A stretch of DNA of 50,516 bases from an uncultured Planctomycetales bacterium (GTDB taxonomy: Bacteria > Omnitrophota > Gorgyraeia > Gygaellales > Profunditerraquicolaceae): contig CAZAPM010000015.1 in the NCBI GenBank assembly GCA_964487475.1, positions 1-50,516 of the forward strand, given 5' to 3'. Position 1 is the first letter of the stretch, and each line of letters starts with the position of its first letter. A program made the translations under genes and the position numbers. The notes below the pieces were generated by a model. It was not told the origin of the DNA. It saw only the letters and a list, made by a program, of their open reading frames with translations, and did no database searches. This document shows, one piece after another, positions 807-42,800 of this stretch.

Positions 807-3800
807 CAGCGTGCCTCTCTTACGGCCTTCACCCGAACCTGCGGCGGCAACTGTGCCGGCGAACACAAAGACCAAAATGCCGGATATCGAGGCGAGGAGC
901 GCAGCCACCGCGATCACGATTACCAAAGGCACCCAAATACTCCCTGACTGCGCTACCGTGCGCGCGGTCAGCAGACGCTCGCAGGGCAGGATCACGGTCG
1001 TGGTCGTGCCCTGGCCGGGAGCAGAGCGCACGGTAAAACGGCCCCGGTGCAGCGCCACCGCGTCCCGCACGATCTCGAATCCCAGGCCGTGCCCGCCGGT
1101 CCCCGAACGGGAGGTGACCCTGATCCCGGTACGAATAGATTCCAGAATATGCGCTGGCATTCCCGGTCCGTTATCGGAAATGGTAACCTGCACTGCCCCC
1201 TCCTGGGGAAGCAGCCGCACCTCCAGCCGCACCTCCGGAGAAACGGTCCTGTGCTCGGTAAAAGCCTTATTGATATCTTCGAAGATATTGAAGAACATCT
1301 CCCAGATCTTGACCCGGTATCCATGCACCAGGAACGACTGCCCCGGCTCCACGATCCATACCACACGCACGCTTTTCAGAAGCCCGGCCTGGCAGGATTT
1401 CTTGAGCACCTCCCGCACATCCACGTCCGACTTAAGGCCTGCGGCGATCCCGCTGTTGATCACCGTTTTGACCTCGGTGATGATCAGTTGCAGCGCGGGC
1501 ATAACACGGCGGAAATGCTGCTGGGGGAATTCGTAATTCGGATCCGGCTCCAAAGGAATACCCATACTCTCCAGGAGACGCTCCGCGGTCCCGTACTCCC
1601 GTCCCCAGCGACGCATCGCGCTGGCAGCCCAGAAACACCTGAGCATCGCCATCCGGTACCTATGCGCGGGCAATTCTCCAGAATATTTCCGGGTGATCTG
1701 CAGCACCCGCTCCAGTATGGATTTAAGCCGGAAAAGAGGGGCTTTGACCACGGGAGCGTCGAAACAGGAAAGATCCGCCGACATCATCATGATCGCCAGA
1801 ATATTATTGATGTCATGAATGGCATACCGCAGCAAGGTAAGGTTGGAACGCAGCTTGGCTTCGGTCACGGTAGAGATGATCACCTGCCGCTGCAGGCCTT
1901 CCAGCTTCTTCCCGACCAGCTCGTACTCCGGCTCCTCCCGCTGCGCGTCGATCGCCTCTTGATGCGCCTTGCCCTCCACTTCTTCCGCATGCTCATGGCG
2001 GCCGATGGCACGCCAGACTATCAGCCGCAGCCGGGGCAAAGAAAAGTTGCTGAGAATGATCCCCTCTGCTTCGACGGTCAGATAGACCCGGTACGGCTGC
2101 CGGCGAAAATCGCCGAATATCTCGGGCAACGCCTCCGGAGCCCGGATACCCGGAAGCAGCCTGAAGAATCTTACCGGGATACCCCGGATCGACACTTCTC
2201 CGGGAACAGACAACTCCTCGGCCAGAAGTTCCCCCCGCGCCACCCACTCCAGACGCTGCGTTTTCTGCTCGGGAGTAAGATTGTTGAAGAATCCGCACTC
2301 TCGCTCTTCGGCTCTTTCCGTCCGCTCTTTTCTACTCCCGGTTTTTTCCTTGAACCTGCGCGAAAGGGCGATCGCCTTGCGTACGCTCTGCTCCATGATC
2401 GCCAGGCCCCGGATATGTCTGGAGCGCTGGTTGGCCGCGTCCATCAGCCGCTCTGCATCGCTTTCCAGGCCCACTTTTGCCGCAGCAACGAGATGCTCGA
2501 ATTTCACCCCCACCTTCTGCGCCTCATCCACGAACCGCTCGGCGATCTTCTCGGGATACCCTCTGAAATGTTCCTGCACCGCAGCGCGGGCTGACGACGC
2601 GCCGCTATTGCCCGAGACGGCGGATTCCGGTGCCGGCTGCGAAGAACGCGCCGAACGGCCGGCGCTGTCGCACGCCAGCTCGTAGATACCCGCCCATTCC
2701 CCGTGCGCGCACTCCGCGCGGCGGCTCCGGGGAAGTTCGTCGAATACGCCTAAAAGCAGCGCCAGCCTGGTGCGGGTCGCCTCCGGCACTGCCGCCACCA
2801 AAGCACCGTTGCTCAATCCCTGCGCCTCCCGGCATTGATTGAACATCTCCAGCGCCTCCCACCCCGCCATCTTCCCTTCTTCCAGCGCTGCCACCGGATC
2901 ATCCATGGAAAGAACCCCGTTGACCACTCCGTCGACGAATGCATACAGCGGCATACTGCGCAGCCACATCAGACGATGTTCCTTATGCATCATCCCGAGC
3001 ATGCGCATCACAAGGCTGCGGGCAGCGCGGCCCCATCCGTAGCGCGCTTTAAGGCTGTCCGTGCGCGCAAAGCTGGTCAGCCACAGCGCTATAGTGGCAG
3101 AAGCTCCCTGCAACGCCTGTTCCGGGATCGCTTCCAGAAGCGCCAGCGCTTCCCTGGGCTCCCCGGTCTGCATGAAACACCACGCCATGCGGAAAGCCAC
3201 CTTAGGATGATCCCTTCCCAGGGTCGCGGTATCATGATAAAGGTAAAGGAAAGGCAGGCCTTCTTCGATTGCCGTCGCCGCATCCGTCCCGAACACCACC
3301 GGCACGTCATTCTCGCAGAAATCAAGGTATATCCCGGCAAAACGTATCAGCGCACGGACGCTGATCTGATCGCGCTCCAGAAGCAGATCAAAGGTACCGT
3401 TCGGAATGCCCAGCCGCGTTTCCGCCAGCGCATATCCTTCCCCATAGGCGAAACGCGAGGAAACCAGGACCGAGAGCCTGTGCTGCCATCCCTTTGCGGG
3501 CAGCGCCGCGCCGGCCATCGCCGCCCAACCTGCTTTACCGACCTCCCCCACCAACCTTTCCTGCCTCGCCAGAAGCGTGCCGTCAGGAAGCGTTACGGAA
3601 TATTCACGGGCGGCCGCGCGAAGCGTAGTATCCTTCTCCTGCCCGCAGTTCAACGCGCCGGGGGTGCAGGCTTTTCCCTGAAGGACCCTCTCCACCAGCG
3701 CGCGCCGGACATCCTCCTCGGATGAGTATTTCTTGCGGCCGACAGGCAGCTTGACCTTGAGACGTCTCGCGGCATCAAGGAGCGCGCTGTTTCCGTGCGG

Positions 3801-6800
3801 CCCTGTAGAAAGCGCCTTATAGTGGTTCTTCCATCCGAGCTTCGCGCGCCGCTCCATCTCGGCCGTCACTTCGGCTTTGGTCTTATAACGGAAGCGGGCA
3901 GGTGCGCAAGGCAGCGGTACCCCGAAACGTTTTGCCGCATCGCACAACCCCTGGTCGGTGTGCGGGCCGCGGCGCAGCGCGCGGTAATAGCTGGGGATCC
4001 CCCTGATCTGTCTCCGGGCCAGCTCCGCCGTCACTTCCTCCCTGCTCTTGTACCGGAACGTGCTTCCCCCCGGGATCTTCGGAAGCGGCACCCCGAACTT
4101 TTTCGCGGAACGGTAGAGCTTCGGATCGGAGTGCATCCCGTTATCCAATTCCTTTGCGGTGATCGGCAGCCCCGCTTCTTTGCGGCGGGAAAGCTCGGCC
4201 TCGACCGCGATCCGGGTAGGATACGCCACCACCGGAGTCTTAGGCAGCCGCACCTTGAGGGTACGGGCTGCGCGGTAGAGTTTCAGGTCCTTATGCTCCC
4301 CCTTCTGGAGCTGCTGCGGGGTATTCTTCCAGCCTTTGCGCTTACGGGCCTTGAGTTCTGCGCGCACCGCATCCGCAGTCTTATAGAACGCGGTACTCTC
4401 GGCGGCGGGGAATGCGACCTTGAATTTGTATGCCGCGTACCTCAAAGAAAGATCCGGATGCTCGCCTTCCTCCAAAGCCTTGGGATTGCTCTGCCATCCC
4501 AACCCTGCCCTGCGGGCGAACTCCGCCTCAACCGCTTCTCGGGTAAGATATTTCGGGAGATCGGTCTTTCTCCGGGTCGGCAGGGTCACTCCGAAGTGCT
4601 TAGCCGCATTAAGCAGTGCCCTATCCCTGTGCACCCCTGCGCTTAACGCCTTGTAATGGTTCGCTTTGCCTTCCGCAGCACGCCGCGCAAGTTCCTGTTC
4701 CACTACCTCGCGGGATTTATAGGTAAGACGCAAGGCATCGGGAAGCGGAACGGAGAACTTCCTGGCCGCCCGGTACAGGGTCTCATCGGTATGATCTCCG
4801 TGCGCGAGGTCAAGCGCGGTATTGCCCCATCCGAGAGAAGTGCGGTGCTCCAGGGCAGCGGTCACGGACGCGGCATCAGGGAACCTCGGCCCCCTGCGCA
4901 CAAAGGCCACCTGCAGGGATTCCGCCTTTTTCACGCGGGAAGGGGCGGCAGGCAACGGAACAGAATATCTCGCGGCGCCCAAACGCAGAGGGATGTCTTT
5001 ATGCGCCCCGCCCTGAAGGGCCCGGTCGAAACTGGGGATCCCCTGTGCCTGCCTGCGGGCCAGCTCGGCTCTGACCTTCTCCTCCGTATCGTACTTCGCC
5101 TTCCTTATATTCTTATCCAGCACCACCCCGAACTTCCGGGCTGACTTGGCAAGAGCGTGATCGGCATGCTCACCGTCCGTCAGTGCGCGGGAATGGGATT
5201 CCCACCCCCGCGCCTTGCGTGCGGCCAGCGCTGCCATGACCGCATCCTTATCCGGGTACCTTCCAGTGATCTCGGGTAATGCCACTGCGAATTTCCTCGC
5301 GGCCTTGTACAGCGGACAATCCTTATCCTTCCCCCTCTCGAGCTTTTTGGGAGAAACCGGCAGTCCGGCGGCTTTTCTGCGGGCCAGCTCCATCTCCACC
5401 GCTTCCCTGGTAGTATATTGAGAAGGAGTGCCCGGTGCTTTCTGAGGCAGAGCGACTTCGTATTTTAGCGCCGCGTAATAGAGCGCGAAATCCTTGTGCT
5501 CTCCCTTGGTCAATCCGGCGGCATGACAAGGCAGCCCCTGCGACTGACGGAACACAAGCTGTGCCTGCACCGCTGCCGCATCCCGGTATTTGGTGCGGGG
5601 ATCGACGGTCATCCCCGCCAACAGCACCCCGGCGGCGGCACAGGGGCCGACCCAGACAAAAACCATGACCGCAAGCAGTGCAACCAGACCGGGACTTAAG
5701 AAACGCCGGATGAAGTTCTGCACCGTCTCGGGCCGCAGCTCCTGCAGGTTCGGCACGAACCCCTGGCAATAATTCCAGAACGCGCTCCCGCACGTCTCCA
5801 TCAGTTCTGAGATCCACGGCTCACCCTTGACCCTGATGAAATGATGCGCGGCCGCTTCTTCGCGCACGACACCGAGGAATCTTTCCCTGTCGGTGATATC
5901 CGCCAGAAAAGACTTGAATTCCAGCAGGTCCCGGGCCTTGAACACCACTTCGCGATTCTCATAACTGCCGGGGGGGATAGTGAAACACCTCTGCTTCTCG
6001 TCAAACTCAAGCGCCGCCCCGCTGAAGGAGAATATGCACAGCAGCTCCCCGGATCCCCTGGTCTCGACCTCTACCTCTCCGGTAAAGATCACGTTGCCCT
6101 GCGGCAGGTAACGCAAGGGCACGGGCGCGCCTATCCCCAGGTAATGCAGCACGCCGTTGCCGTTGACCCCGGGGACGCGCTCTTTTCTCAAAACGGAAGC
6201 GCGTTCCTGATGGAGAAGGAACTCCCCTGCTTCCATGACCGTAAGATTCACTCCGTCAGGAACCATGGTAAAGGGGAGCCGGCGCTGATATTCGGCCATG
6301 GTCCGCACTCCCAGGGACCCGAAGGCGAGGCGTTCGAATAAGGTCGAACCCAGCGCATACTCCTCCATCCCGTCCGTGACGCTGACCAACATATGCCGCA
6401 GCCCCTTAGGCGGCCTGCCCATCCATGATTGCTGGACGTATATTCGCAGCACGCATATCTGCTGCGAAGGTATTCCTTCCGCAAGGAGCGCTTCCACCAG
6501 ATGCCTGGCGGCGAACTGACAGTCTCCCCCGCGGACGAATACCGGGGACCGGGTCGCCAGCATCCCCCGGCAATCATGCAACCCCTGCGCGAACCACTCC
6601 CCGAACCCGTACTCATCGACCCTGGACTCCTGCGCCAACAGTGCCGCCGAGATCCTCTCCGCATCCGACACCGCCGCCGAAGCGTTCTTGATCACGCCGG
6701 TGAGGACCCCCAGGTTATATTTGAAGTGTCCCCAGACCGCATACGGATAGGCTGCCAGCCAGCTTCCCCAATATCGTTTACCTGTGCGGCGGGAGAAGGC

Positions 6801-9800
6801 ATCGTCCAAACCGCCGAACCACTCCCATGCCCTCTTCTTCAGATCGTCATAGTTCGACACCAGGGTGTGCGCGCCCATGAAACGGTACATGCCATGCGGG
6901 GAGGAGAAGAACTTGAATGGTTCCATGAGCGGCGCCCATACCAGCGCGATACCCCAGCCTATCGGACGCCTCCAGAAGTTCAGCCACCAGCGCCCGCGCA
7001 TCGACCAGCGGTAGAGCCGACCGTACCACGCAGTGCGGGCCACTCCCGGGACGGGTCCCAAAGGATCCGCCTGCGCTCCAAGGAACAGCGCTTCAAGCTC
7101 GTCCGAAGGCTGCTCCGGTTTCCACCAGCGCTGAACCACGTACTCCTCGTGTGCGGATGAAGCCGATACCGCGCCTACCGCGCCCAGCGCGTTCGATTCC
7201 CCCGGGATACTGTTGACCGCCGCACGATCCGGCGCATGGCCGGACACGAGGGCGCGCAACAGATACTGCCCGTTCTCGAATGTCCTCTGCTCGAGGGGAA
7301 GCTTCAGCAGCGCCTCCAGCATCCAGGGATATGCTTCGATCGCGGGATAGATCAGCTTCCTGCCCGTCTCCATCTCCCAGAGCGCAATGAAGGTGAACAT
7401 CTCGTCCCGGCTGGCGCGCGCGGCGGAATGGCACTCGGTGCAGACGGCGTCATCATGCATGGGAATGTTCACGAACACCTCGCGGTAACAGGATGCGAAC
7501 ACCGCATGCCACTGCGGGATGGACCCCTCCCACTCCATCACCGCCAGAAGGAAGTCTCCGGCCGTATCCGCAAGCAGCTCATCCAGCGCATCCTTCCCTT
7601 CCTGCGCCGGCGCCCGGTTGATATCGACCACGAACGCGTTGATGATGTGCCCGATCTCGTGCGCGCCTACCGCAAAGCACATCTTCGGCGCAGCGGCATC
7701 TTCGATCAGGTCCTTCCTGCCGAATTTCATGAAGGAGTTGCCGACCTTCGGAAAATCCTCCGTCAGGAATGTCTGCATCATGATGGTGTTGAGCAAATGC
7801 TCATCGAGCGCTTCGCTCGCGAACCTCGATCCGTCGCGGCGCACCAGGTCCTCCCGGATCACCAGCCATATTGCCAGCAGGAACGCTTTCCACTTCTCAT
7901 TGAGCCACACGGTCGAGTCGGGAAGCAGGTCCAGCGCGGTCGTATCCGCATGCCGGGAAAGGAGCTCCCGGGCAAGTCCCACCGCCAGGCCACGCATCCC
8001 CGATGCCGGGATCAATCCGAACGCATAGATGCGCACCTCCAAAGGAGCCTGCTCGTTAAGCAGAGTGTTCAACGCGGCCTGCTTATACGTGGATCCGGAT
8101 ATACGCGGAGACGCTGCCCCAAGGTAGCACGAGAGTTTTTCCAGCAGGTATCTCCCGTCCTCCTCCTTCTGGAACTTCCTCGCCCGGTATACCAGGCTGT
8201 TGACCGCCACCAGACGGTCATCCTTGGAAAACGCCGGATTGGCGATGATTGCGCGCAGGATATTGACGGCTTCTTTGCAGCAAAGGCCGTATCCTCCGGT
8301 AGCCAGTTCCGCAAGACTCCATATACCCTCCGACTCCTCATGCCGTTTCGTGACCTTCAGATCCCGGAACATCTTCTCCCACAGGGAAAGGTCAACGGCC
8401 TTGCCTGTTTTTGCCGCCCGGGCCAGCGCACGCGAATATACCCGAAGCAGGCTGCCGACCGCGGAATATTTCTGGTTGTTTTCCGCCCGGGCGCAAACTG
8501 CGAGTTGCTCGAGCGCCTGCGCATTACCGCCCAATGCCAGCGTTTCCAGCTGCGCCAGCCCCCTGGCGAAAGCATCCTGCACGGTCATACCGAGGAGGCA
8601 TACTCCCGCCGCAGCGACGCCCGCGCCGGGCAGCAGGGCTGAGAGCGCCGCCAGAAGACAGAGCGCCAGCACGATACCGGCGCGCTTCGCGAACCGGTGC
8701 AGAGCCTCCTCCACCGGCATAAATGGCGCCGGGACCAGTCCGGTGCCGTGCACTTCCTTGTCGGTAAACACACCCGTGAGCGCGCTCACGCCGGATCGGA
8801 ACCCTTTATCCTCCAACGTACTCCGGTACAGCCCGCGGGAGACCATCCTCTCCAGATACGGGATACGCGCCTGCTCGAGCATCTGGGATGCGGACCGGGC
8901 GATGATCCCCTCTCTTCCGGGCATATTCGCGACCAGGTAATAGACCAGGCCCTTGTACCCTACCCGCACCGGATCATGGTGGTAGGTCACTCCGGGGTCT
9001 TCGATATGAGTCCCGTCCTTGTCCAGGAATTCAAAGTTGTCCACTGCCACATCGACCATGATCCGGCGCTTCGGATGCGCGTCGCACACCCTGAGGATGA
9101 GGTCATGCCGCAGCGTGCGCACCGCCTTTCCTCCGGTTCCGACGGCAGCGCCGATCATGATACTGGCGTGCGAGAACGCGTGCTCGACCGCCTCCCAGTC
9201 GAACGCATCGATCACTTTCAGCTCACCATGAGAACACGCGCTTCGCCCGTACTCGCCGGCCAGTAAATCCTCCAGGTAAGGAATGCCGTGCTTCTTGGCG
9301 GAGATAATGACCCGTGCGCCCATGCGCCGTGCCTGCCAGAGCGCGGACAATCCCGCGGCGCCGGCGCCGGTGATGAACACTACGACATCCCTGAGCAATC
9401 CCGGCGCGCAGGCATCCGGATACGCCCCCAGCATCTGGTGCACCCACAAAGGATCCGCGAACACCTGGCCGTCGAGCAGGACCTTTTCCTCATTAAGATA
9501 AATGGCCCCTTGCAGCACGGCCTGGGCCCCGGCCACGATGCTCATAGGATCGAGACAGATATGCGTTTTAGGGAGGTGCTCCTTGGCTTTCCTGACCAGG
9601 CCCGGGACCATGATCCTTCCCGGAGCACCGGCGGAATCGATCCACTCCGGCCGCATGAAAAGCGCCGCATCCTGCGCTTTTCCGGTGATCCCTTCCAACG
9701 CGATCGCGGCGCACCCGGTCTCCAGCACCCTCTCTGCCATCGTGGGAGAGTCGATAAAATGGAAGTAGGTCATGAGCGCCGGGCCGATCGGGTCCGGCGA

Positions 9801-12800
9801 AACCCCATGCCACGCGGCATATTCAAGCAGATGCGTTACCCCTGCGGGCGTCAGCGCCACGCGGCCTTCATCGGGAAGCCGCTCCTTGACCACGCCGATC
9901 ACTGCGCGCGCCCGGGAACGGGATGTCCTGCCGACTTCCCCCATCAGGGAGAACTCGTCCGTGCCTTCAAGCACCAGCGGCTGCTTGACCTTGAGCACCA
10001 GGTCAGACCCCTCCCACACCTCACTCGCGCTCGCGACCAGGGAGGCGCCCGCATCCTCATACTCGTCATTGCTGAAGCCGCTGCGCACCCCTGCTCCGGA
10101 CTCGACCAGTATCGCGAGATCCCGCTGATCATTCGCGGTGTGCGCGGCAACGGTGCTTCCCGCAAAACACATCCCCCCGGCCAGGGAGCACACGAACGCC
10201 AACATCGCCAGCAAGGGAGTATTCCGCAGTACCTGCGCCAGACGGGAGTACACCGCATGCACGAATGAAAAATGCGCCTTGCCCACCCGGATCTGCTGCC
10301 TGAACATGGTGATGGAATCCCGCACCTCCTCATTATCCAGCGACGGGTCGTTCGGGATACGCGCTGCTGCCAGCTGGTCCGTAAGCCTGCCCAGCGTCTG
10401 CAGGTGCGGCTCCATGGCCAGGATATACTTAACCGCATCTTCTTTGGCAAACACCGGAGGCTTGTTTCCATACACCATTTCGACCATGCTGCGGTGCAGG
10501 GGAGTCCGGGAACGCACGGTGTGCAACGCTTCGCTCAACTGCTGGCCTAAGTCTCCCACGGTCACCGGTACCATATCATCAAGGTAGAAGACCAGGGTCT
10601 TCAATGCCGTATAGAGCGTGCTATCGAACTTCTCCGCGATGCATACGCATAACGCATGCGCAAAGGCCTTTATACGATGCTCCTGCGATACTATCCCTTC
10701 CGCATCCTCCCGGGAGAAAGGCCGTTTCTCTCCCTCATCCGGAGAAAAGACGAACTTCTCGCCTCCGCACTGGCGGTACATTTTCTGCAGATGCGCATAC
10801 AGCGCAGCCTGCGTGATCTCATCCTCGAGTGCCCGCTTGATCAAACGCTGGGCACGCTTCTTCAGATCCCCGGCCAACGCCATGGAAACGGTAAAGGAGC
10901 AGAGCCTTCCGTCCCGAGCCAAGCGGCTAAGCATTGCCTCTGTCTCCTGCGGGCAATGGGCTGCCATGAACTCCCGTCCGGATAAAGTCCGCGCCTGCTC
11001 TGCGGAGACACCGTCGATCATCCGCTCATCCGTACGCATGCGCCCGATGGACGCCAGCAGCTGCTCATCCGCAGAGACCACCATGCCGGCGGCCGCCAGA
11101 CCTATACCCGCCGCGGCAGGGACATTCCCCAGCAGCAGTACTATGGAGATCCCCGCCAGTATCAGGGAAAACACTCCGGCAGGAGCTGCGGCGATTACCC
11201 GGTAGAAACGGCTGGCCGCGCCGGCCGCGCGGTCGATCCAGTCAGTCCTTTTCCCGGTCAACGCGACTGTCTGAGCCCTCCGCCACGTACGCATCTCATC
11301 ATCGGAAATGTGGATATCCGCGGTGGCGATACGGGGATCGTTGCGTATGACGGTCACGGTGACAGTGCCTGCCTGCGGCCGCGAGATCTCCAGCATCAGG
11401 GGATCGACCACGGCAAAAGGAGAAGCCCCGCGCAAACGGTATATCTCCCAGGACATCGCCGAGAGCGATTCGCCGTTGATCGTCGACCAGTACGGATTAT
11501 CGCTGAACACCTGAATGCCGGCGCGCTCGCAGTACGGGAACCCTGCGACCGGCACCAGCGCCGACTCGCAGGCCTCAGCCTCGTCCAGCATCCGCTCAGC
11601 GGTCAGGGCGTCCTTACGCTCGTAATAGTATCCGGCGCTCATGCGGTACGCCAAGATCATCTGCCGGGTGAACTCGTAGAACACCGCCATATCCCTGCGG
11701 GGATTGCAGGCACGCGCATTGGCCAGGTTGGATGCGTCGAATCCCCTGCCCTGCACTCCGAACACGGCCTTGGAGCGGTCCATCAACGCCGAGGGTTCGA
11801 TCCCCCAGGACTTGATCAAAGGCGCACCGAACGCCAGTATTGCCAGGGCCTGCACGTCGACCGCCGGCAAGGTGCCGCCCGGACCGCGCCGGAACTGCTT
11901 TCCTGCCACATCCACGCAGTTGTTCCTGACCCACTGCCTGACCTTTACGGCCTCGGCGAGCGCATCTTCACGCTCCGCTGCGGTCAGGTACGGAGCGAGC
12001 ATCTGCAGGAACGCGAAATAGTCCAGATTATGCTCGGTGGAGAACTTGTCCCTCCAGAACGCATCCCATCCCATGGCGATCCCGCCGCCGGAATGAGGGA
12101 TGGAATTCTTCACCCAGAGATAGATGTTCCGCGCCAGCGCCAATGCCGCGACGTTGCCGCCGGCCTGGAAATATTTCAGGGAGAATATCCCGATCCATAC
12201 GTTCGGACCGACGTGCACGGTGGACTCTCCCCCGACGGCGCCGGTCAGATAATTATACATATTGGCGTACCCCTTGAAGCCTCCGCGGGCAGCCTGATAG
12301 TCATACACTCCTTTATAGAATGCGAAAAGTTTTGCGGCCACCGCATAGGGCGCGTTTTCCGCCAGCAGCGCAGCCAGCCCTGCCGCCGCCTGATCATAGG
12401 TTACGGCCTGCGCAGCCATGAAGGTATCGCTTGTCCCCCGGAAGCTCACGAAAAGCCCGGTCGTGGCGTTGCGGCCCAAAAGCATCGAGGCAAAGACCTG
12501 CTGCGCCTGATCAACGGACTGCGCCTGCGCCCAACGGAAACCCGCGCCGAATAATACCCCGGCCACTCCCGTCGCAGCCTTCGCGAGAAAATCCCTCCGG
12601 GAGAATCGCGATGATGCCGGGATGGACAATTGATAGGTATCCGGGACATACCGCGAATCGCCGCTGTTGTTGAACCCGAGTTTTTGCATCAGCCCGGCTG
12701 CTTCCCGGCTTACGACCCATCCCCAGGCACGGCGCAACCCCATTGCCTGCGCCTGAGCGAGCGCGGTCTTAAGCAGCCCTTCGGCGATCCCGTGCCCGCG

Positions 12801-30800: not shown

Positions 30801-33800
30801 CAGGCAGACGTCATCGACCTTGACCAGCAGCCCTTTGACCGCGCTTTTCGCCTTGCCCTTTCGCTTCTCATCGATCAGATGCAGCAGATGCTCCTTGTTG
30901 TCTATCTTATCGTACCCGAAGACGATCTTATCCGGAAGCACCTCGAGCACCTCGAAATAATCCTCCAGCTCCGGCTCCCTCTGGAAATTGACCAGCATGA
31001 AACAATCCCCCTTCATGGCGATGACCCGGGGGTCGACCGGGACCTCGGGGGTCTCTGCGTCTTCGCGAAGATGGTGCACACGCAGATCCTTAAGTTCGAA
31101 CTCCTCGTCGAACCCGTCCCCCCGCACCGCGATCCCCCGGTAGGAATACACCGCGCCGCCGTAGATATCCTTGATCCTCTGGGTACGGTGGCGCATCGCC
31201 TCGGAAACAACGGAGACGATCCCCAGCTGCGGCCTCAGGGCTTCCAGCGCCAGATACCCCATGGCTTTGCGCCGGAACATGTTCATCTCGGAGACCATCG
31301 AGGGGTTCGCCTGCGCCACTTCCTGGGCCAGGGTGAATGCGTGCGTATACGCGCCCGCGGAGATCAGACCGCCGACTCCGCCGCTGACCGTGCTGCGCGC
31401 GGTGGAATTCTCCGGAGAGAGAACGAACCCGGAAAGGAACGCCTGGCGCGACTGCTCGAAACGCTTATGTGAAAGCGCCGTCTGCGCATCCAGGAAGAAC
31501 GCCTGACGCTTCCGGATGGTCTCCTCCGCCGCCCTGATCATCCCGGCCAGATGTTCATCCTTCGGGAACACCTTGCGCACCTTCTCGAGCCTGCGCTGCG
31601 CATCGTCGGCGTTACGGGCGAGCAATGGACGCGCCTGCCCCACGACGATTATCTTCTCTTTTACCTGGATGAGCACCTTATCCTTGGGCCACTGCGTAAC
31701 TGCCAGGACCGCTCCTGCGGCAGCATCATCGCCCTGGGCGCTCAATTCCTCCGCCCGCTTCAGTAACGCGGCCCTGGCCTTGAGGTCGGCGAGATCCGGA
31801 AGCAGCGGCGCCTCGACCAGCGCGGTCAGCGAATCGATCGCCTGCAGACATTCCGTGAATGAATACGCGGCATAGGCATTCTGTGCGGTATCCCGAAGTG
31901 CGCGGGCGCGCACGGCATTCTCCCTGGCCCTCTCCGCCCCCTGCCTGCCGTATACCATTGCCTCCTCCTGGGAAAGATACTCGTCGACCCACTCCACAAC
32001 CTCGCGGTATTTCCCCTGTTCCAGCCATCTCTGCAAAAGAGGAAGGAATACTTCCGGCACATAGCGCAGCTCATGCTCCAGCCCCGTCACTGCCGTGACG
32101 AGCAGCGCATTGATACCCGGCGCGCAGGCGGGGAATTGCGAAAGGACCCTCAGCTGCAGCAGAAGCGCAACGGAGGAATACGCCATCAGCTCGGAAAGGG
32201 CCTGCGTGGCAGCGGCACACGCCAGATCCTCCCGGTTGGGAAGAGCAGCGCGAAGCGCTCCCCACAGGTATTCCTCATACGCCGGATACTGCAGCGACCT
32301 CAGGAAGTAGGTCAGCGGCCTCCACACCGCAGGTGCCATCGAAGAAACGCGCATCCTTTCCCACAACGCATCCTGGGCAAAACGCTGCACCTGACCCGGA
32401 AGGAAACGGAAAAGCATGAGGAACTGGCTTACCGCGTTCATCACCACGGCTTCGGCCGGGTTGGCGGTCACTATTGCCTGCACCACGCTGAACGCTGCCT
32501 GCGCATCCCCCCTGGCCTGCGCGGCGACCAGCAGCGCCAGGTGTCCGGTGAACTGATAGGAGATCAGATCGCACCGGCTCAAAGCCCAACCCGCATCATC
32601 CCCCAGCACGGCCTGATGATCGCCGGAAGCCACCATCCGCAGCACCCCGGAGGCCAGATGCGCTTCCTGGTCCCGGCTCTCGGCGAGCTCCTGGGTGACC
32701 TGCTGGAACATCGGTTCCTGAAAGAGATTCTCACCCGTACGAAGCAGGAACACTGCCCAGGCGCACCCGATGATCGCCAGCTTCTGCGGCTCCCTCTCCG
32801 GCTGGGAGAAGAATATACGCAATCCTTCATGCAGATACTCCCGCGCCTGTGCATCCTCGCCCGAGAGCAGGAAATGCATCAGTACCTTGGCCATGGCATA
32901 ATCGGTCACGTACGCTTCCCGCTCTTCCCGATTTACCTCCATCTCCCGGGAGACCGTACGCAATGACACCGCAGCTTGCATCCGGATATTCCTCGGCCGC
33001 AGCACCTGCGCGCATACCAGCTCGTAGATATCCAGGAACATCACGGTCTTCGCCGACTTTTCCGCATTCGCCCGGCAATCATCGGGAGAGATCATCCGGC
33101 GATCGGCCAAGGCCTGATTCACCCGGAGCAACTCCTTGAGATATTTTCTCGCTTTTTCCAGCGCCATGCAGGTAAGTCCGGTCGAAGCGACCGTATCCAG
33201 GAGATTGAGTTGATCCACTGTCGAAACGAACGCGCCGCATCCGGCCAGCCGCTCATACGCCTCTTCCCCGGTCTTGAATTTATTGTGCAGCGCATCGAAT
33301 GCCCGCAGTGTCCCCTCGCCTGTGCGGTTACCCATATACTGCATGGTACCCTGGACCATGGCCACCAGCACGGCGCGGGTGCCGGATGATTGCACCAGTA
33401 ACTCCGCATACGGCATGGAAATATCCATCATCCGGCGCAGGTACGGCCCGTGCGCCTGGAACATCTTAAGGAAGTACGCGAAGGAAGAAAGCACGAAAGT
33501 AGCCAGCAAATGCTGCTTCAGGCGATATCCGTCGCTTCCTCCGCTGGTGAACTGATTGAGCCACTCCAGCGCGAATTTAAACAGCTCCAGCCCTTCCTCC
33601 GGACAGAAATATCCGGTATAGAACGCAAACGCCGATTCCAGGCTTTTCAAGGCAGGCTCAACCCCCTCGGAGTATTCCCGCAGCTTCGCCGGATCGCGGG
33701 GAGGCTCTTTCTTTCCCAGCGCCATCAGCAGTACTTCGGAAAGGAATTTCTTCTTCTCTTCGAGCTCGCCCATGCGTACCGGAGTCACCTGGAGGCGCTC

Positions 33801-36800
33801 GTCGAAATTGGGCCGGGATATGAAATGCTCCCGCATCATCCCGGCAATGGCAGGAATGTGCACGAACCCTTTCCAGTATTCGAATACATACTTGCGCAGC
33901 ATGAACGCCTGCTCTTCGTATGAGATCGCCTTCGACGCCCCGGTCAGACGGCCTGCGATCAGGCTCAGGCTTTCGAAAAGAGACGTATAGAGCATGGCAT
34001 ATGCCAGCGGTGCGTCTCTGGCGGTAAGCTCTGCGAAAAGCGGCCGGTTCACGTACACCACCACCCCTTCGCGCTCGTCTTCTGCCGGAACGGTCAGCGC
34101 AGAGGATTTCTCCAGCGCCGCCAGGGAAAAAGAGGTCCGGAAATACCGAGCCAGGGCCCGGCCCAGATAATTAAGGGTTGATTCCATGGCAGAGAAAGCC
34201 GTATCCATCAATGCTTGGGCCTGAGGCATCTGCAGAAGGGATTCCTCTATCCTGACCGTAAGCTCGAACTCCTCCCCGCCCGAAGGAGAAGAAAAACGCG
34301 CGGTATCCTGCGCAAAGGTCTTCTCATGAAGGAAAACGCTCGCATCGGAAGGCAGCGAGGCATCGAACAGAGGGCTGGAATGATGCAGGGAAAATACGGA
34401 TTCCTGCTGGAAATAGTAGCTGCCTAAACGGTAATTGATGGCAGAGAAACTGATCGTGGTGCGCTCAAACTCTCTCGTGGTCCCCGTACGTCCGGTCGCC
34501 CCCACCAGAAGCTCGTTGGCTATGATGAACTTCTCGAAATCCGAGCGCGGCAGTGCCAGCACCAGGTCCTGGGTCATGCACACCGCTTTTGCCTGTCCCC
34601 GGGGCCCGCGGCTATCCCCCACATTCACGAAATGCGGTTTACCCCGCGCCTGGACCAGATAGAACGGTCCGCTGCCGAAACGGGGATCCTTGTTGCGGCC
34701 GTTGAAAAGATACAGGTAACAGGGCGCGGACAAGGTGACCCCGGAAAAGAGGTCTTCGATCTTTGCCTTAAGCTGCTCCGTGGCATTCGCGGTACAGATC
34801 TCCACGCCGGCATCGCTCACATACACCACCACCGTATCGTCCCGGCCGAAATGCTGGTCGATCAGCCTCTGGGTGCCGAAATACTGCGCATACAGCATCG
34901 CGGCGTCGATCACCTCTTCTCTTTTCTGGCTCTTTATCCCTGCGAGATCGCACAACGCTCCCGTCATCAAAAGCACCAGTTCCATCGGATCATCGAATGA
35001 CGCCTCGGTGCTGTACAAGACTCCGTCCCGGATGTACATCTCGGGATTGTGTCCGGGGAGGGCGCGCGGGTCGCTGTCGCGCGCGATCTGCATGAACCGC
35101 ACCATGCTCGCCCCTAAACCCGGAGCATCCTGTTGCACAAAACGGTTCACCGCGGAAAGAGCTCCTGCGAGAAGATTGACCCTGGCGGCCCGGCTCCTTG
35201 CCAGTTCCGCCTCGGCTTGCGCCTGCGCATCATCCGCCGGATCAAGCATGCCCAACAACCCGAACCCGGCACCGAACGCCAACGCAGGCAACGCGCCGAA
35301 ATGAGCACCCAGCAGCGCCAGGCCGATGAGCCCCAGTAGCGGCGTGTGCCGCTCCAGAGCCTCACGGGCTTCCCGTGCTGCCGAAAGGATCTCCTGGTAC
35401 CATACTTCACCCTGGACTTTACGCGCATCTTCTCTTTCATACGCGCCGACCACGGCCCGATGCAGCGCCCCCTGACTGACCCTGGCCAACGCTGTCCTGT
35501 CCCCCGGACCGAAGGTAACCGCGATCGACTGCGCCTCCTTCAATGCCCGCGTCCTCACGGAAGTGAATGTCGCCGGAGAGGAGATCGCCTGCTCCAGCAC
35601 CCAGACGCACTCCCGGCTGGGCAAATGCCCGTTCCGCAGCACCGCAGAAACAAGGGAAACCACCCGCTCCTGGTCATCCTGAGGATAATTCTCCTTCTCG
35701 GAAAAGATCCTTCCCGCAGCCGCAAAGATCGCTTCGTAGAAATCAGGTACCAGTTTCCGGATCCCCTGGTCCCAGTAAATATGCTCCGTCGCGCGGATCA
35801 TGAAATCCAGCTGCCGGGAAACCTCATACCCGTCCCCTTGCCGGATGCGGCGGGCGATGAGTGCGCCTTTCCATGAGCTGTACCACGGCACGATGATCCG
35901 ATTCACAAAAGGGAACACCACGGTCAGACTCATAAACGTCCATACGACCAGTCCCTTCCACCCCGAGATACACGCGGAAGCAGGGAATGTCAGCAGCATG
36001 TACCCTTTTAACAGCATGCTCTCGTAATCGGTATATGCCAGCGCGTCCATCAGACGTTCGAAACGCGTTCGAAGGATTCGCGCGGCATCGTTATTGCATG
36101 CGCAAAGCACTACGCCTCCCGCCAGGAATATCCCCAGGGAAAGATACGCTGCCAGAGGGATCAGCTTCAGATAAGGCAACGACAGCATCGCCATCCACAC
36201 CAGCAGGAACGCCATGTTCACCACCACCAGCAGCCGCAGATCGGCTCTTCCCGACTCTTTGCCGGCAGGAGGGCCGGACTTGATCGCACGGTAGAGGCCC
36301 GCGAGCTCGTTGTAACTCCGGGATAACGTTTTGAGCTCACCGGCAAATACCCGTGCGGTGTAACGCGCCAGAGAAGGTGATTTCACCAGCTCGAGCGAAT
36401 CGACGAGCCGCTCGAATTCATCGGTAAACATCAGCTGTGAATACCGCTTTGCGGGTACTCCCCTCTCGATCCTTGCGATCCACGCCTCGTCTATCGAAAA
36501 CGCGTTGCGGGCAGGGTCGATCTCCCCTCCCAGGTCCGCCAGCCGGCACTCCTGGTCCGCGATACTGTCCCCCACCGAGACGAACACCGCATGGCTTTTC
36601 CCCGTGACGTATTCCGAAAGACGCGCATACTTTTGCTTCATCGACTGAAGGACGGCGCTCAAGGCATTGATCCGGGCATGGATATTACTCGCGTCCCGGT
36701 ACGCCCACACCACCCGCTGGAACTCATTCGCCACCTGCTGTCCGCTCTTAGCCGCCACTGCCTTTGCCGCGCTGTAATTGTACCTGTGCCCGGTGCCCGG

Positions 36801-39800
36801 ATATTCCTCGGTCACGGTCAATGCCAGGGCTTCCCTGGCCAGCGCCAGACCTATCTCGACGGCTGAGTACTCGCCCTGCAGTATCCCCGATGCGATCGAC
36901 CTGGCCAACGCTTCCTTCTCCTGCAAAGACGATGCCGCACGTACCTTTTTTGCAGCCGATACCGCCCGCTCCATCCCCGCATTATCCGAAGGCTCCGTCG
37001 TTGCGCAGATCGCCGCAGCCGCGACCGCCGCGCCTGCCCATCCGGCCAGAACCGCTCCCAGCGCCAGCGGCAGATACTTCCAAAGTTGCCCGGGGAGCAC
37101 CCGCACGAACATCCTGATCACCCTGACGGTCTCTTCGCGCAGGGTGCCTACGGCCGGGACAAAAGGAGGGTTCTCCTTATGCAGCATCGCCAGGTAGCGG
37201 ACAGCGCTGTTGCGGCTCGCCGGATCCGATGAATTCAACGAACTCCACATCCGTTCCTCGATCAGCCCGGGATAAAGATATCGCAACTGGGAATGCAGGA
37301 GCTCCTTGCGCACATCTTCGCTCCGCGTCAGATACGGCGTAATGATCGCATGATATACGAGGGGCTCTATGCACATGCGGGAGATCAGGAATAACGTCAC
37401 GGCCATATGCGCCAGGCCGGCCGCCGCAACTGCGTAGGGGAGGAACCATGCGCCCAGCAGGCTCGCCACCGGAACGACCAGAATCAGTGCGGACAGGGTG
37501 ATCAGCAGCTTCGCCTGGCTGAAGCAGAACGCCAGTCTTTCGCGCACGGTGCTTCCCGGCGCCTGAGGATAATGCAGCAGGTGCCAGGCCAGCTGGATCC
37601 CGGCGAGCCGCAAGGCATGCTCAAGAGAGAACCCGAACGGCAGCCCGAGAAGGAGTATCAGCGCCAGATCCGCCGCGGCCATGAATGCCACCGATTCGAC
37701 CAGCGACGGCGCCGCCACCCATCCGACGAAGATCCCGTACTGCTGCTTAAAGGACTGGTACCATTCCCTCATCCACGGCCACATCCCGGCGCACGCCGCC
37801 AGGGTGATCTCATCCAGATGCCGCAGCGCGTTCCCGACCGCCCGTTTTTCCGCCCCCTCCTGCAGCGTCGCTTCCCGGTCTGCGAGCGCCTGGCGCGCCG
37901 CCTGCTGTTGCGCCGGCGTGAAGAAATGCTCCGGCTCAGCCAGCATCAGGCCCTCTGCCGCTTCCAGAAGTTTTTCCGGGTCATTGCTCTGCCGGATATT
38001 CTTGATGTAGTACACGATGGTCAGATTGATCAGCGCCTGCTGCAGCAACTGGCGGCACTCGGCATCCTCCGCGGAAAGAGCGGTCTCTTCGTGGTAAAAA
38101 GCCAACTGCGCCTGCACCGCCTCGATACAGGAGACCACCGGCCGCGCATCGCAAAAATGATTCTCGTTGACCGTGATCAGTACCCGCGCGATCTCTCCCG
38201 TTTTCTCGGGATTGGCGTTGCAAAAGCTCCATGAGATATGGTGCAGCAGAAGAATGGTCAGCCAGCGGTACGCCGCCTTGATCCGGTAGTAATACAGGTT
38301 GACCTCCCCGAAGGATCCGGACTCGGGGACGATCTCCAGCCGCAGCCGCAGATAGCGCATCCACCTGACCAATGCGCCCGGGACCTCGAAATCCCCTATC
38401 CCTGTCTGCCGGATGGAATCGATCAGTTCGAAGTGGCTTATGGAAACGCCGTGGTACGGCGCATCATCGGCTTCCGGAGGGAATTGCGGGAGTTTGGAAT
38501 GACGGTATGCGCACATCCCGGCGAGCCCGAAAACCAGACCTGCCGCCGCAGCGGGTAGCCACCAGGCGGCAAGCACCGCCACGGTAAGGATCGCCAGCGG
38601 ATGGATCAGCCTGCCGAATCGCGCCTTGACCGGCGCAGGTATTTTCTTATGCCGCAACACCGCACGCACTGCCTCAACCAGGGTCGCGGAAGAGCTAAGG
38701 GTCAGGGAAAGCCTGCGGCGGGAAGGATAATACCTGGCCTGCGCTCTTTTTCCGGCGAAACGCACCCGGCACTCCACCGTGCACTCTTCGCCGGAGATCG
38801 CCCGGACTTCATCATGCCATGGCGCGTACGTTCGCGTCGGATACCTGTACTCTGCCGAAGTATCATTCAACCAGGCTGAGGCGGCGTCAAAAGGGATCCC
38901 GGCGCCGCGAAGTTCCTGCAGCGCGTCCATTGGATCGGTTTTGCCCCTGTACACCAGCGAAAGCACTTCCTGCGCCTTTGCCGCCCTCTGCGGATCGAGA
39001 CCATCCACCCCGAACGCTCTCAAAAGCTTGGAAACGATAACACCATCGGGATACTGCCTGCGGCCGGCTTCGGCGAGTACCCGGTCGAGATCACGGACAG
39101 GCTTAAAAGGCCGGAACTCCCTCTCCGCCATCTCCCTTACCACAGAAGCAGCAGAATGGTTGGTCTGCACCCTCCCGATGATCCTCTTGGCTGCTGCCTG
39201 GAACGCCTCCGTAATGGAAGGTCCTCCCACCGTCGCGGCAAGCAACAACCAGGTGCCGGTCAAAGGCAGATACTGCAGCAGCAGATAGAGCGCATACACT
39301 GAAGCCGAGGCAAAAGCAACCACACCCGCGGCCAGCACAGCCAATCCGGCCAAACGGGATACGCCCGCCGCTCCCGTCGCACACGAAGGATCCTTAATCC
39401 TCCGCAATACCGCAGAGAACGACCGGCTGTCGAACACGGCATCGGCGGACATATCCTTCTTCCAGACCTCCTCCATAGGCATCCCCTCGAGCGGCCGCGA
39501 CCCATGTGCCTTACTCCGGACATAAAAGAAATGGTATGGAAGACCGGTATATATCTCCCGGGCGTTCAAGTCGTTGAAAAGCGGCCATTTTGCGAGTATA
39601 TCCTCTGCCGTGACGATCTCCATCCGCCGCATGCCGCTTTCCCGGGCATAATCCTCCAATGCCATCAGGAGCACTCCGGCCCAATCCTGATACTTCCGGC
39701 GCATGCCGTTATGAAGATGATGCACCACGTCGGTCTGCATCTCCGTCACCACCAAAGTATCATGCATCCGGTAGAAGCGCGCGTACGCCAACACCCCCTT

Positions 39801-42800
39801 GACGTGCATACCCGACACTACCCGGCTTCCGGCCTGTGCCGCCACCGTATCCCACTCCGGCTGCGCAAGGTACACCCCCAGCACATAGCTTTTCTGCTTA
39901 TCTGCGCCCACCTGGTGGTAACAATACGGCCGTACCGCGAAACGGCAGTCAAAAAGCCGCACCCCTGCCTGCGCATGGAGATTACGCAGGCTCTGAGAAC
40001 GGGATATGTCCTGGATCATCTGCCGCAGGATGCTTTCGTCGAAGTAGGGATACCGGCCCAGAAGCTCCTCGATCATCCCGGAGGCGCCGTTCCAATGGGG
40101 ATAGGCCGCCATGATGGCTTTACGCAACTGCCGGCGGGTAAATGATACCGGCCGCACTCCGCTGCCTGCAAGCAGACCGCTTAAGACTTCTGCGACTTTC
40201 TCATGCTCCTGCGCAGTGGCATTGAACGCCGCAGACTGCAGTTCAGTCTCATAACGTCCTTGCGCGTATCGCGTTCTCGTCTCTTCCTCTCCCAGCTCTT
40301 TAAGCGACCAGGCGTAATCATCTAATTGGCTGAAATCTTCTACAAGGCCAAGCGCCTTGAGCACATATTCCAGATCAAGTGAATCTGAAAGCCGGATCAC
40401 TTCCCTGACCTGCGGCCAGGAGTACCCCTTCTCAAGAAGACGGACCATTTCTTCAACCGGGAAACGCATCGCCAGCTGATCCACTTCCTGCAAAGGAACA
40501 TTGCCTAATTTGGCTGCTTTTTTAAGGCTTGTCTGATAAAGAGTTACCACATCTTCACCCTTTATCCGAAGCCATTTAAAACTTCTTAATAACTTATTAA
40601 AAGTCTTTAATAAAGTACATGATAATATGTCCGCGCCAACCAGATCATTTGGCCCAATACAACCTCTCGCCTGCCCAAGATGCATATACCCTGATGCGAA
40701 CGGACCAGAGGTCATATGCCAGATCAAAGCACCTTCTCTTGTCCTGCCCACCGGCTTTACGAACAGATTGCGGTCATTATCCCGGAAGGGGCTGTGCGGA
40801 TGATCGACCACGGTCAGGACCTCCCGGAAATTCATTGCGACGCGGAGATACTCCGATGAATCCGACGCCGCACTGATCACGGACTTCTCAAGGGAATGGA
40901 AATAGAGGACCGCCTCAGCGCGATCGATATTCAGCGCCTTCACCCCGGGAAGCTCGCTCACGGACTCCACGACACAGGACTCATCCGCCCGGATATCCGT
41001 GCCGCTGCGCAATATCTCCCAGGTCGCCAGCGAGGACCGGCTCAAAACGGCCTGCCTCTGCAGCTGATACGTACCCCGACCCGCATCAGGCCCCTGATGC
41101 GCTCCTGCCGCAGCCTCGAACAAATGGCCGGGAACGAGCGATAACACCGCCTCATCCAACGCATTCAGCGCAGGATACTCCGGCATCCTTACATCACGCT
41201 TGCACAACGCGGCCTTCTCCCGGTACAACTGATATTTCATGATCCCCAGACCACAGAACACCACAAGCACCAGCGCGACCACGAGCCCGGCCACCACAGG
41301 GAGCAGCACCTTCCAACCGAGCACCAGGACCGTTGTGACCGCAATAACCGTAAGCAGCTTCTGAGACACATATCCGCCGCTCTTCTTGATCGAGGTCGGT
41401 TTATTGGCGTCTATCTTGGCCTTGAGCGACTTATTCATGGCATCGCGCTGCGCGTTAGGGTTCCGGATCTTCTCCGCGAACTTCGCGGCCTTGGTCTTAT
41501 CGATCTCTCCGGTGACCGACGCAGCCTTGGAAACCTTCTCCCTGGCCGGCGACGAACCTTCAGCCTCCGCCCCCGGGATCCTTTCGATCGATATCCTTAC
41601 GCCTGACGTGGCAGGATTAAGCACCAGCACTTCACCGTGCATCGGAGGGTACACCAGCACGCCGCCTGCCAGCACGCTTTTCTCCCTCTCCCGGCTCAAA
41701 GAAACGGCGCTGTTGAAGATCACCTTCCCGGAGTCATCCTTGATCACAAACCCTCCGGCCAGCGGAAAGCGGTACTCGGCACCAGGCTTGAGCACCTTCA
41801 CCCCGTTGCTTCCGTTCGTGAATTTCATGACCGCAACTGCCGCTGCCAGCAGTGCGATCAACACCGCCGCGCCGATCGCCAGCGTCGTAAAAGAAATAGC
41901 TCCCAGCACCGGCGACGGGAAATAGACGACTGCTGCGGCGGACGCAAGCCCCCACCAGCCACGGAAGGAAGACTGCGTTCCCTTGGAAACGTTCCGCAGC
42001 AGCCGTACACCCGGTCTTTCATGAACGCCGAAAACCATCCCTCCTACCAGCGCCATGAAAGGTATCAATCCTAATCGCGTACCCAGCAAGGTAAGCACGG
42101 GAGAGATAATATAGGTAAAGCCTCCCAGGAACACGAACCCGATGAAGACGAACATGCCGACCATATCCGCGGTCCGGCTGTAACACTTCGAGAACAGCAT
42201 CGCGGCAGCCATGCGCGAACCGTCCAAAGGAGGGATCGGCAGCAGGTTGAACAGCACCAGCACGGCATTGACATAGATGAACGCCGACATGAACTGCCCG
42301 GCAGGCACCCCGCACAGCAGCAGCGCGATCCCCAGCAGCGCCAGAAGCGCATTGACCGCCGGTCCGGCGGCGCACACTGCGAACTGCTGCGAACGGGTCA
42401 GGATATCGAAATTGATGGGGATAGGCTTAGCCCAGCCGAACCCGCAGATCGCCGGAAGGAGCAGGGTGCCTACGGGATCGATGTGACGCAGGGGGTTAAG
42501 GGTCAGGCGGCCCATTGCCCGTGCGGTGATGTCTCCGAAACGATCGGCCATATACGCATGCGCGTACTCATGCACCATCAGCGAGGCCAGCGCGACCAGG
42601 AACACCATGATCTTGAGCGGCCAGGCGGCGGTAAAGAATCCGAACCCGAACACGGCGCATGCGCCCGCTGCCCCTGCGAGACGCCTTAACTGCGCCAGGG
42701 TCTCTTCGGAAGTCACCTGCCGCCAGCAGTCATAACGTGTCTCTCCTTCTCCCAGCACGCGGCATTTTGCCTCGGTATCGACGGTAAACGGCTTGCCGCG

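Follow-up and report, generated by a model that had tools for sequence, protein, structure and literature searches.

The window, by which we mean the whole 50,516-nucleotide (nt) stretch analyzed here, is the entire contig C15 of a 1.87-Mb Omnitrophota genome, and a single stop-free minus-strand reading frame (16,838 codons, both ends open) runs across it. The enzyme modules of this giant frame are punctuated by 12 hydrophobic linkers, here called cassettes, that end in a common Gly-[Met/Ser/Thr] motif. The cassette is a real feature and, among the sequences searched, is specific to this giant gene. Our leading, tentative reading of the sequence comparisons takes the 12 linkers for a membrane-embedded counterpart of Omnitrophota giant junction signals, with a predicted cut after the Gly by a protease of the site-2 (M50) type; an anchor role is almost as likely. 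Taking this route together with a predicted cut by signal peptidase I (SPase I), we lean slightly toward some cleavage at the cassettes. The cassette is a variant on known giant-protein junction signals and is mainly of interest because it makes the cleavage question testable: a single frame offers about 12 well-defined candidate sites, along with a candidate protease that is intact, for asking whether such a protein works whole or cut. If the cassettes are plain anchors, they are a modest, lineage-private detail.

An initial annotation of the window had quoted 10 similar linker endings, all of which we found in the minus-strand frame within ∼25 nt of where it had placed them. It had counted about 17 linkers; their recurrence at enzyme borders was borne out, but the number supported here is 12. 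We formalized the ending as the pattern [AVLIFMCG]3-G-[MST]-[AVLTC], which ends 11 of the 32 hydrophobic blocks in the window frame, compared with 16 of 960 in ordinary proteins of the genome (mean of 0.87 and maximum of 6 in 5,000 within-block shuffles). The pattern was derived from the window sequences, which makes this test circular, and we therefore repeated it on held-out sequences, taking uncharged hydrophobic runs of at least 26 amino acids (aa). The pattern was present in 10 of 22 such runs in the window and in 3 of 6 on contig C16 (two of the three being full cassettes). Ordinary proteins had it in 6 of 349 runs, the giants from 12 other genomes in 1 of 90, and five further giant frames of the source genome in 0 of 12. 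In leave-one-out scoring, 8 of 10 window cassettes ranked above at least 99% of the 349 control runs; cassette 12259 failed (P = 0.29) and cassette 16554 was marginal (P = 0.046) (cassettes are named by the frame position of their motif Gly). Both C16 cassettes and a window run kept out of training (aa 8020 to 8057) scored above all 349 controls. The shared motif that the initial annotation had proposed is thus enriched over control membrane runs on held-out as well as leave-one-out data.

We searched for the cassette more widely. A 12-row cassette profile run against 1.84 billion proteins gave two matches, both unrelated tandem repeats, and an ESM Atlas search gave no usable match. Run against the source genome, the same profile returned its training rows only; this genome-wide search is insensitive, as it missed the C16 copies.

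A full cassette consists of a Lys or Arg, 31 to 43 uncharged residues, the motif, whose fuller form is three hydrophobic residues and then x-Gly-[Met/Ser/Thr], and usually an Asp or Glu after it. The uncharged run begins with a strong helix, often followed by Pro and small residues, and passes through a weak Gly/Ala-rich part to the Gly-[Met/Ser/Thr]. The statistics refer to 13 cassettes, 11 from the window and 2 from C16 (for the Pro run and composition, the set carries the variant at aa 8051 in place of cassette 2826). Lys/Arg stands ahead of all 13, compared with 112 of 178 controls (P = 0.005), and Asp/Glu behind 11, compared with 64 of 178 controls (P = 0.0008); charge polarity had played no part in cassette selection. 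The last 19 residues are unfavorable for membrane insertion in 12 of 13 cassettes (biological hydrophobicity scale), and Gly and Ala make up 41 to 62% of the second half. A strict mid-cassette run of Pro and then small residues occurs in 7 of 13 cassettes versus 8 of 256 controls. The first helices are only 17 to 36% identical to one reference cassette, with the tail persisting, and behind the natural C terminus of the M50 module the motif tail occurs alone, so that of the two elements it is the tail, not the Pro-Ala run, that varies less. Two places past the Gly, the residue is Val in six cassettes, Thr in three, Ala in two, and Cys and Leu in one each. Coordinates are collected in Table 1.

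TABLE 1 Cassettes and selected modules of the giant reading frame (positions are those of the window; aa, position in the frame)
Feature	Position	Strand	Description
Giant open reading frame	3..50516	-	16,838 aa, both ends open; runs upstream into C22, probably downstream into C16
Site-2 (M50) intramembrane metalloprotease module	42063..42644	-	aa ∼2625 to 2818; PF02163; HEYAH and NLLPIPPLDG
Cassette 1, Gly aa 2826	42021..42062	-	Motif tail only, beginning where stand-alone M50 homologues stop; attached to the last helix of M50
Cassette 2, Gly aa 4000	38505..38609	-	Full form, including Pro-Ala run
Cassette 3, Gly aa 5089	35244..35348	-	Pattern match and leave-one-out score
Cassette 4, aa 8020 to 8057	26346..26459	-	Variant with G-Q end, following TPR block; absent from the initial annotation
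Cassette 5, Gly aa 11627	15621..15722	-	Separates glutamate racemase-like and GNAT modules
Cassette 6, Gly aa 11821	15033..15149	-	Separates GNAT and GT2 modules
Cassette 7, Gly aa 12259	13731..13850	-	Weak member: pattern match, leave-one-out failed
Cassette 8, Gly aa 13144	11070..11198	-	Equivalent junction has TNAAIL in G318, VNSSVQ in G576
Cassette 9, Gly aa 13453	10131..10223	-	Ends 3 aa upstream of alanine dehydrogenase (AlaDH)-like module
Cassette 10, Gly aa 13976	8577..8681	-	7 aa past AlaDH end; TNSAVV at G576 junction
Cassette 11, Gly aa 14968	5604..5702	-	5 aa upstream of ∼57-aa repeat array
Cassette 12, Gly aa 16554	831..959	-	7 aa past HATPase_c, 8 aa upstream of second repeat array; marginal score
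Possible degenerate cassette, aa 4481 to 4507	36996..37076	-	Without Gly; P = 0.03 versus controls; outside the 12
Module with internal twin-arginine translocation (Tat)-like signal	11184..12605	-	Common to giants of G318 and G576
AlaDH-like module, internally permuted	8700..10124	-	Pfam/NCBIfam matches, homologue comparison

The cassettes lie at module borders. Nine of the 12 are no more than 20 aa from a module limit, compared with a mean of 0.70 and a maximum of 6 in 20,000 random placements, with limits that were hand-listed from profiles and homology and in several cases extrapolated; the other three lie in sequence without a defined module limit. For example, one lies 1 aa past the natural end of M50, AlaDH and HATPase_c are each followed by one after 7 aa, and AlaDH and the two repeat arrays each have one ending 3 to 8 aa ahead of them. 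In part, this result only mirrors the fact that a linker is unable to sit inside a domain. It is also accounted for if the cassettes are uncut tethers, because any anchor must lie between domains. On this possible account, hairpins or reentrant anchors would pin blocks of cytoplasmic enzymes to the inner membrane, and Gly-[Met/Ser/Thr] would be a helix-end or packing feature stemming from a duplicated linker. Omnitrophota giants are indeed studded with membrane helices, and the accessible text of a 2026 catalogue of long proteins, in which helices are treated as anchors, describes 46% of them as transmembrane only (10.64898/2026.06.07.730766). The Gly/Ala content of the second half resembles that of packing helices, and the cassette is found at a minority of junctions only. 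One giant (L021 of genome G240, aa 1107 to 5290) contains seven copies, ∼70 to 85% identical, of a different membrane unit of ∼95 aa, and such linkers therefore spread by duplication. An anchor, however, does not need a fixed tail, and the tail persists where the first helices have diverged. The second segment is followed by Asp/Glu rather than Lys/Arg, which makes for poor anchoring, and where a junction is shared, the other giants lack any membrane segment there and have a soluble motif only.

The comparison set was the giant frames of 12 other genomes, ∼245,000 aa in all, in which the cassette motif ends 2 of 222 hydrophobic blocks, neither of them cassette-like. In 6 of the 12 genomes, the giants have strong soluble junction words: TN[SA]AVL (45 spaced copies in G318, L006 to L010, and 26 in G576, L074 to L076), PLDNG (69 copies counted as a junction word in G249, L026 to L033, with PLDNG[KR] found 88 times in 45,887 aa), SSP[VI] or SSSP (19 copies in G437 and 86 in G592), and DxAM (19 copies in G333). 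A seventh genome has a weaker word, GLEE (nine copies in G296, L023), four have none, and G240 has its repeated membrane unit instead. No soluble junction word was found in the frame of the window.

Cassettes and soluble words occupy equivalent positions at four junctions of three cassettes (13144, 13976, and 1267 of C16), where the general form of the word is N-[S/A]-A-V-[L/I/V]. A module ending in RFYRVIAAA leads into cassette 13144 in the window, into TNAAIL in G318, and into VNSSVQ, a degenerate form, in G576. AlaDH is followed by cassette 13976 in the window and by TNSAVV in G576. The module upstream of C16 cassette 1267 ends in TNASVL in G318, and the module downstream of it starts after TNAAIL in both G318 and G576. 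Similarly, HATPase_c leads into cassette 16554 in the window and into the repeated membrane unit in G240. At many other shared junctions, the other giant has a soluble word and the window has nothing recognizable. That homologous junctions can have either a soluble motif or a membrane cassette suggests that a signal resides in the junction itself. We also considered an x-Gly tail common to the soluble N-[SA]-A-V-L word and the cassette and rejected it, as a Gly lies two places on in 5 of 43 copies in G318 and in 7 of 28 in G576.

Tat signals act at N termini. Four of the six internal Tat-like signals in the G318 and G576 giants start within 40 aa after a soluble word (chance, ∼0.09 each; two of the four are orthologous), and the homologue of the window's own Tat-like signal lies 15 to 18 aa after N-A-A-V-L in both. 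Given where Tat signals act, this suggests that the soluble words are cut and generate N termini by cleavage.

For cleavage within a membrane segment, a comparison is offered by SpoIVFB of Bacillus subtilis, which holds pro-sigmaK in an N-out/C-in orientation, cuts S21|Y22 after L16-V20, and so releases the C-terminal portion to the cytoplasm; cleavage is lost when S21 or V23 is replaced by Trp (PMC11486902). The cassettes resemble that substrate in having a hydrophobic run, a small residue at the cut position (the cassette Gly, itself a selection criterion), and a nonbulky residue two places on. By analogy, this geometry favors the M50 family as the cassette cutter. The two systems also differ: pro-sigmaK has one N-terminal prosequence and is one substrate of a separate, regulated enzyme, whereas the window gene has a dozen internal candidate sites, each behind a further helix, and a short type of M50 without a CBS domain. 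In the predicted course of events, the first helix would enter the membrane with its Lys/Arg side cytoplasmic and turn at the run of Pro and small residues. The weak second segment would return toward the cytoplasm and unwind inside the protease. Cleavage at Gly|[Met/Ser/Thr] would then release a downstream module whose first residue is Met, Ser, or Thr, leaving the upstream block tethered by its own tail. The initial annotation had offered a membrane-anchoring cassette or a cleavage signal as alternatives; border position, equivalence to soluble motifs, and likeness to pro-sigmaK speak for the latter, with the anchor close behind in likelihood.

The intramembrane protease that the initial annotation had placed intact in the same frame proved to be so, with complete zinc motifs and a profile and fold that match site-2 proteases (S2Ps). 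HEYAH and NLLPIPPLDG, which carry the zinc ligands (HExxH and NxxPxxxxDG), are invariant across an 83-row alignment. The best PDB profile match is the S2P MJ0392 (E = 4e-8), and the structure model (predicted local distance difference test [pLDDT] score of 75) has MJ0392 and SpoIVFB as its top Foldseek matches, with a probability of 1.0 and E values of only 0.02 to 0.1. A model of M50 with its tail is uninformative on self-cleavage, the tail having a pLDDT of ∼50. The window M50 is ∼40 to 46% identical to the stand-alone M50 of the same genome and ∼50 to 57% identical to its best database matches, several of which are labeled Planctomycetota. Among 110 genomes of the family, two have the same M50 type in frames longer than 1,000 aa (a giant fragment of 15,301 aa and a fragment of 1,491 aa). 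A search of long proteins found a single one with this M50 type, which is not a cassette-bearing giant, and a Pfam M50 search of 151 genomes listed only RseP-type proteins among its best matches. The other membrane proteases of the source genome are RseP, one SPase I, one rhomboid, A24 peptidases, and the stand-alone M50.

Several observations weigh against a cut at the cassettes by an M50-type enzyme. The two M50-bearing frames just mentioned have the cassette motif in none of their hydrophobic runs (0 of 34 in the 15,301-aa frame and 0 of 4 in the 1,491-aa frame). By simple patterns, a G576 giant with the soluble word has rhomboid-like and CPBP-like modules (L074, aa ∼505 and ∼4493), and the M50 may therefore be ordinary cargo. 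The comparison with soluble words takes as its premise a cleavage of these words that is itself putative, and downstream of the junction equivalent to cassette 13976 there is no soluble motif in ∼150 aa of G576. Cassettes occur at no more than 7 of 20 module ends and 3 of 17 module starts, and aa 1 to 2800 and 8060 to 11590 contain several modules and no cassette. The Tat-like signal of the window itself (aa 12638; SRRDFL...AQA, 12516 to 12605, minus strand) has its nearest cassette 376 aa away and none before it, which counts against the cassette as the sole junction signal. The cassette was not found outside its source genome in the sequences searched, leaving no conservation across orthologues to measure. 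The linkers had been described as hairpins in the initial annotation; the hydrophobic stretch is there, but its hairpin shape is only presumed, because AlphaFold2 models the one cassette tried as a single continuous helix, at low confidence (pLDDT of 65). An N-out/C-in orientation of the cut segment would follow if the cassette is a hairpin; the charge polarity and the single-helix model would allow one crossing as well.

The specific link between this M50 and the cassettes that had been proposed was not upheld, as co-occurrence singles out no enzyme when M50-bearing frames lack the cassette and the genome encodes other membrane proteases. The window M50 is the strongest candidate for the cutting enzyme but no more than a candidate, and the stand-alone M50 or RseP could serve. 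The fullest version of the idea is a polyprotein with its own intramembrane protease, in which M50 would release itself at the adjoining tail and a dozen enzyme blocks would then be freed at Gly|[Met/Ser/Thr], a membrane code taking the place of the soluble one of the relatives; we consider this doubtful. Were it true, Omnitrophota giants would be polyproteins in which both the cut code and the enzyme that cuts are exchangeable between lineages.

A different enzyme, SPase I, could use the same segments as mimics of a signal peptide, cutting on the outer face after the run of small residues that follows Pro, so that the second segment slides back to the cytoplasm and a site-2 protease may clear the first helix. 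We regard this as unlikely. All 13 cassettes have a basic n-region, an h-region, a breaker, and a small-x-Ala (small residues at −3 and −1) 14 to 30 aa past the last Lys/Arg, which is weakly above the 9.6 of shuffles (P = 0.019) and compares with 101 of 256 ordinary internal runs. Ala-rich runs satisfy this rule almost by default, and the strict Pro-small-residue run, itself so rare in controls, is missing from 6 of 13 cassettes and absent from cassette 2826. The genome encodes one SPase I and an RseP. The substrates of RseP include helices in N-in/C-out orientation, and it also removes leftover signal peptides (PMC7728848); RsiP is a membrane protein cut by SPase and then by S2P (PMC8844934). 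The most constant element of the cassette, Gly-[Met/Ser/Thr], is left unexplained by a cut on the outer face. Unlike Sec signal peptides, the cassettes are all internal and precede cytoplasmic-type GNAT, GT2, and AlaDH modules, with no return helix between 11627 and 11821; judged by N-terminal position ahead of an exported domain, they are not Sec signal peptides.

We compared contigs of four sequencing runs with 7.3 kb of the gene and found 18 changed bases in 15 codons. Eleven of the 18 form two clusters, one at or shortly ahead of cassette 13976 and one at or shortly ahead of cassette 12259. Four of the five residue changes lie in these places, and all four are conservative and leave Gly-[Met/Ser/Thr] untouched. 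Such clusters, like the two cassettes ahead of paralogous repeat arrays, would fit a recombination relic, in which the cassettes derive from one linker that served as a crossover point for adding modules and the protein motif has no role. The clusters are only two events, one of them from a contig of depth 2.9, and have little weight; the strain contigs compared show no joint at a cassette that could be trusted, blastn finds no DNA similarity between cassettes, and no DNA palindrome or fold beyond that expected from synonymous recoding was found in 15 segments (z = −1.5 to +2.1). A relic is the least likely of the explanations considered, and we think it improbable. A one-codon insertion in cassette 13144, seen at 80% likeness, was gone at 90% and was dropped.

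Other identities were rejected as well. Integron attC-like sites were ruled out, there being no imperfect palindrome or DNA-level repeat. Codon-level constraint at the motif Ser was dismissed, as its codons are AGY but so are 33 of the 60 Ser codons that follow Gly in the frame. Internal translation restart at the motif Met was set aside, the position being Ser or Thr in 6 of 13 cassettes. By a pattern of our own, the class III prepilin signal (basic/polar-x-Gly before a hydrophobic run) occurs in 3 of 70 runs in giants of the source genome and 14 of 707 ordinary ones and is not enriched, and the rhomboid P4/P1/P2′ pattern, found in 12 of 13 cassettes and 192 of 256 controls, is uninformative. 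Glycine-zipper 2TM domains (Pfam) and CTERM sorting signals (NCBIfam models) gave no match in 12 segments at E values of up to 1, and neither identity was retained. GlyGly-CTERM, PEP-CTERM, and MYXO-CTERM pair a short signature with a membrane helix and are recognized by a dedicated membrane protease. They lie at the C terminus of the protein and have a basic tail, whereas the cassettes are internal, with basic residues in front and an acidic exit.

The polyproteins of flavi-, pesti-, and bunyaviruses contain internal membrane signals that are cut by signal peptidase and intramembrane proteases. The window gene is like them in being one frame whose products are parted by hydrophobic segments doubling as anchors and, here as candidates, cut signals; it differs in being a bacterial chromosomal gene for metabolic and regulatory enzymes whose processing is predicted. 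It shares with other Omnitrophota giants a frame of more than 10,000 aa, scattered membrane segments, and glycosyltransferase, GNAT, NUDIX, HAD, and HATPase modules. A 2023 preprint on "Archaeovorins" (West-Roberts et al., 10.1101/2023.11.21.568195) proposes that giants are cleaved into several products, names C39 or S8 peptidases as candidates, and describes the cleavage points as unknown. Pfam gave no match to SecA-DEAD or to an N-terminal C39 or S8 peptidase in the window, which is part of a gene with open ends. The words "cleav," "motif," and "polyprotein" do not occur in the main text of the 2026 catalogue (10.64898/2026.06.07.730766), nor do "cleav" and "polyprotein" in the accessible text of Seymour et al. 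(PMC10066038). The accessible portions of the 2023 and 2026 preprints describe no recurring junction cassette, whereas the window gene has one. A literature search that did not extend to subscription journals and preprint supplements turned up no publication on such motifs or cassettes at the junctions of Omnitrophota giants.

The giant gene extends beyond the window. The start of the frame shares a 55-nt overlap with contig C22, on which the frame goes on for 5,655 aa. Contig C16 opens with a 7,804-aa frame that has the terminal ∼57-aa repeats of the window and two cassettes; this frame is probably the downstream continuation, although no sequence overlap joins the two. By Pfam, NCBIfam, and homology, the modules of the window frame include two HAD phosphatases, a metallophosphoesterase, a NUDIX domain, the M50 protease, an SF1 helicase, TPRs, a glutamate racemase-like domain, two GNATs, GT2 domains, AlaDH, and HATPase_c. 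No orthologue of the gene was found in 60 relatives (searched with one region), in two metagenome scans, or among long proteins.

Some further features of the giants were observed. The G240 membrane units start abruptly at small-hydrophobic3-x-GG and have a mirror-image layout, with a weak segment ahead of the strong helix. By eye, internal signal-peptide-like segments with an Ala-x-Ala end, a short loop, and a return helix are present in L101 of G127 (aa 422 to 481), in the giants of contig C5 of the source genome, and in L009 of G318. In the AlaDH-like module of the window, the usual first segment (IGVVKE...GRVALTP) is placed after KVKQP, while the G576 homologue is in normal order. The module with the Tat-like signal has stand-alone relatives of ∼650 aa in many Omnitrophota genomes. 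The ∼57-aa repeats, which are basic, form arrays at 3537 to 5591 and 3 to 809 (minus strand) that extend into C16 with a mutual identity of ∼40%; they were absent from the 60 relatives searched. In the upstream part of the gene on C22, HExxH words (HEAVH and DIFxHE) occur four or five times, and two related modules in the window (aa 7434 to 7497 and 9132 to 9195) apparently lack the motif, the second as judged by eye. Lastly, positions 49778 to 50213 (436 nt) match contig C34 at 75% DNA identity, in a paralogous stretch that is beta-phosphoglucomutase-like.

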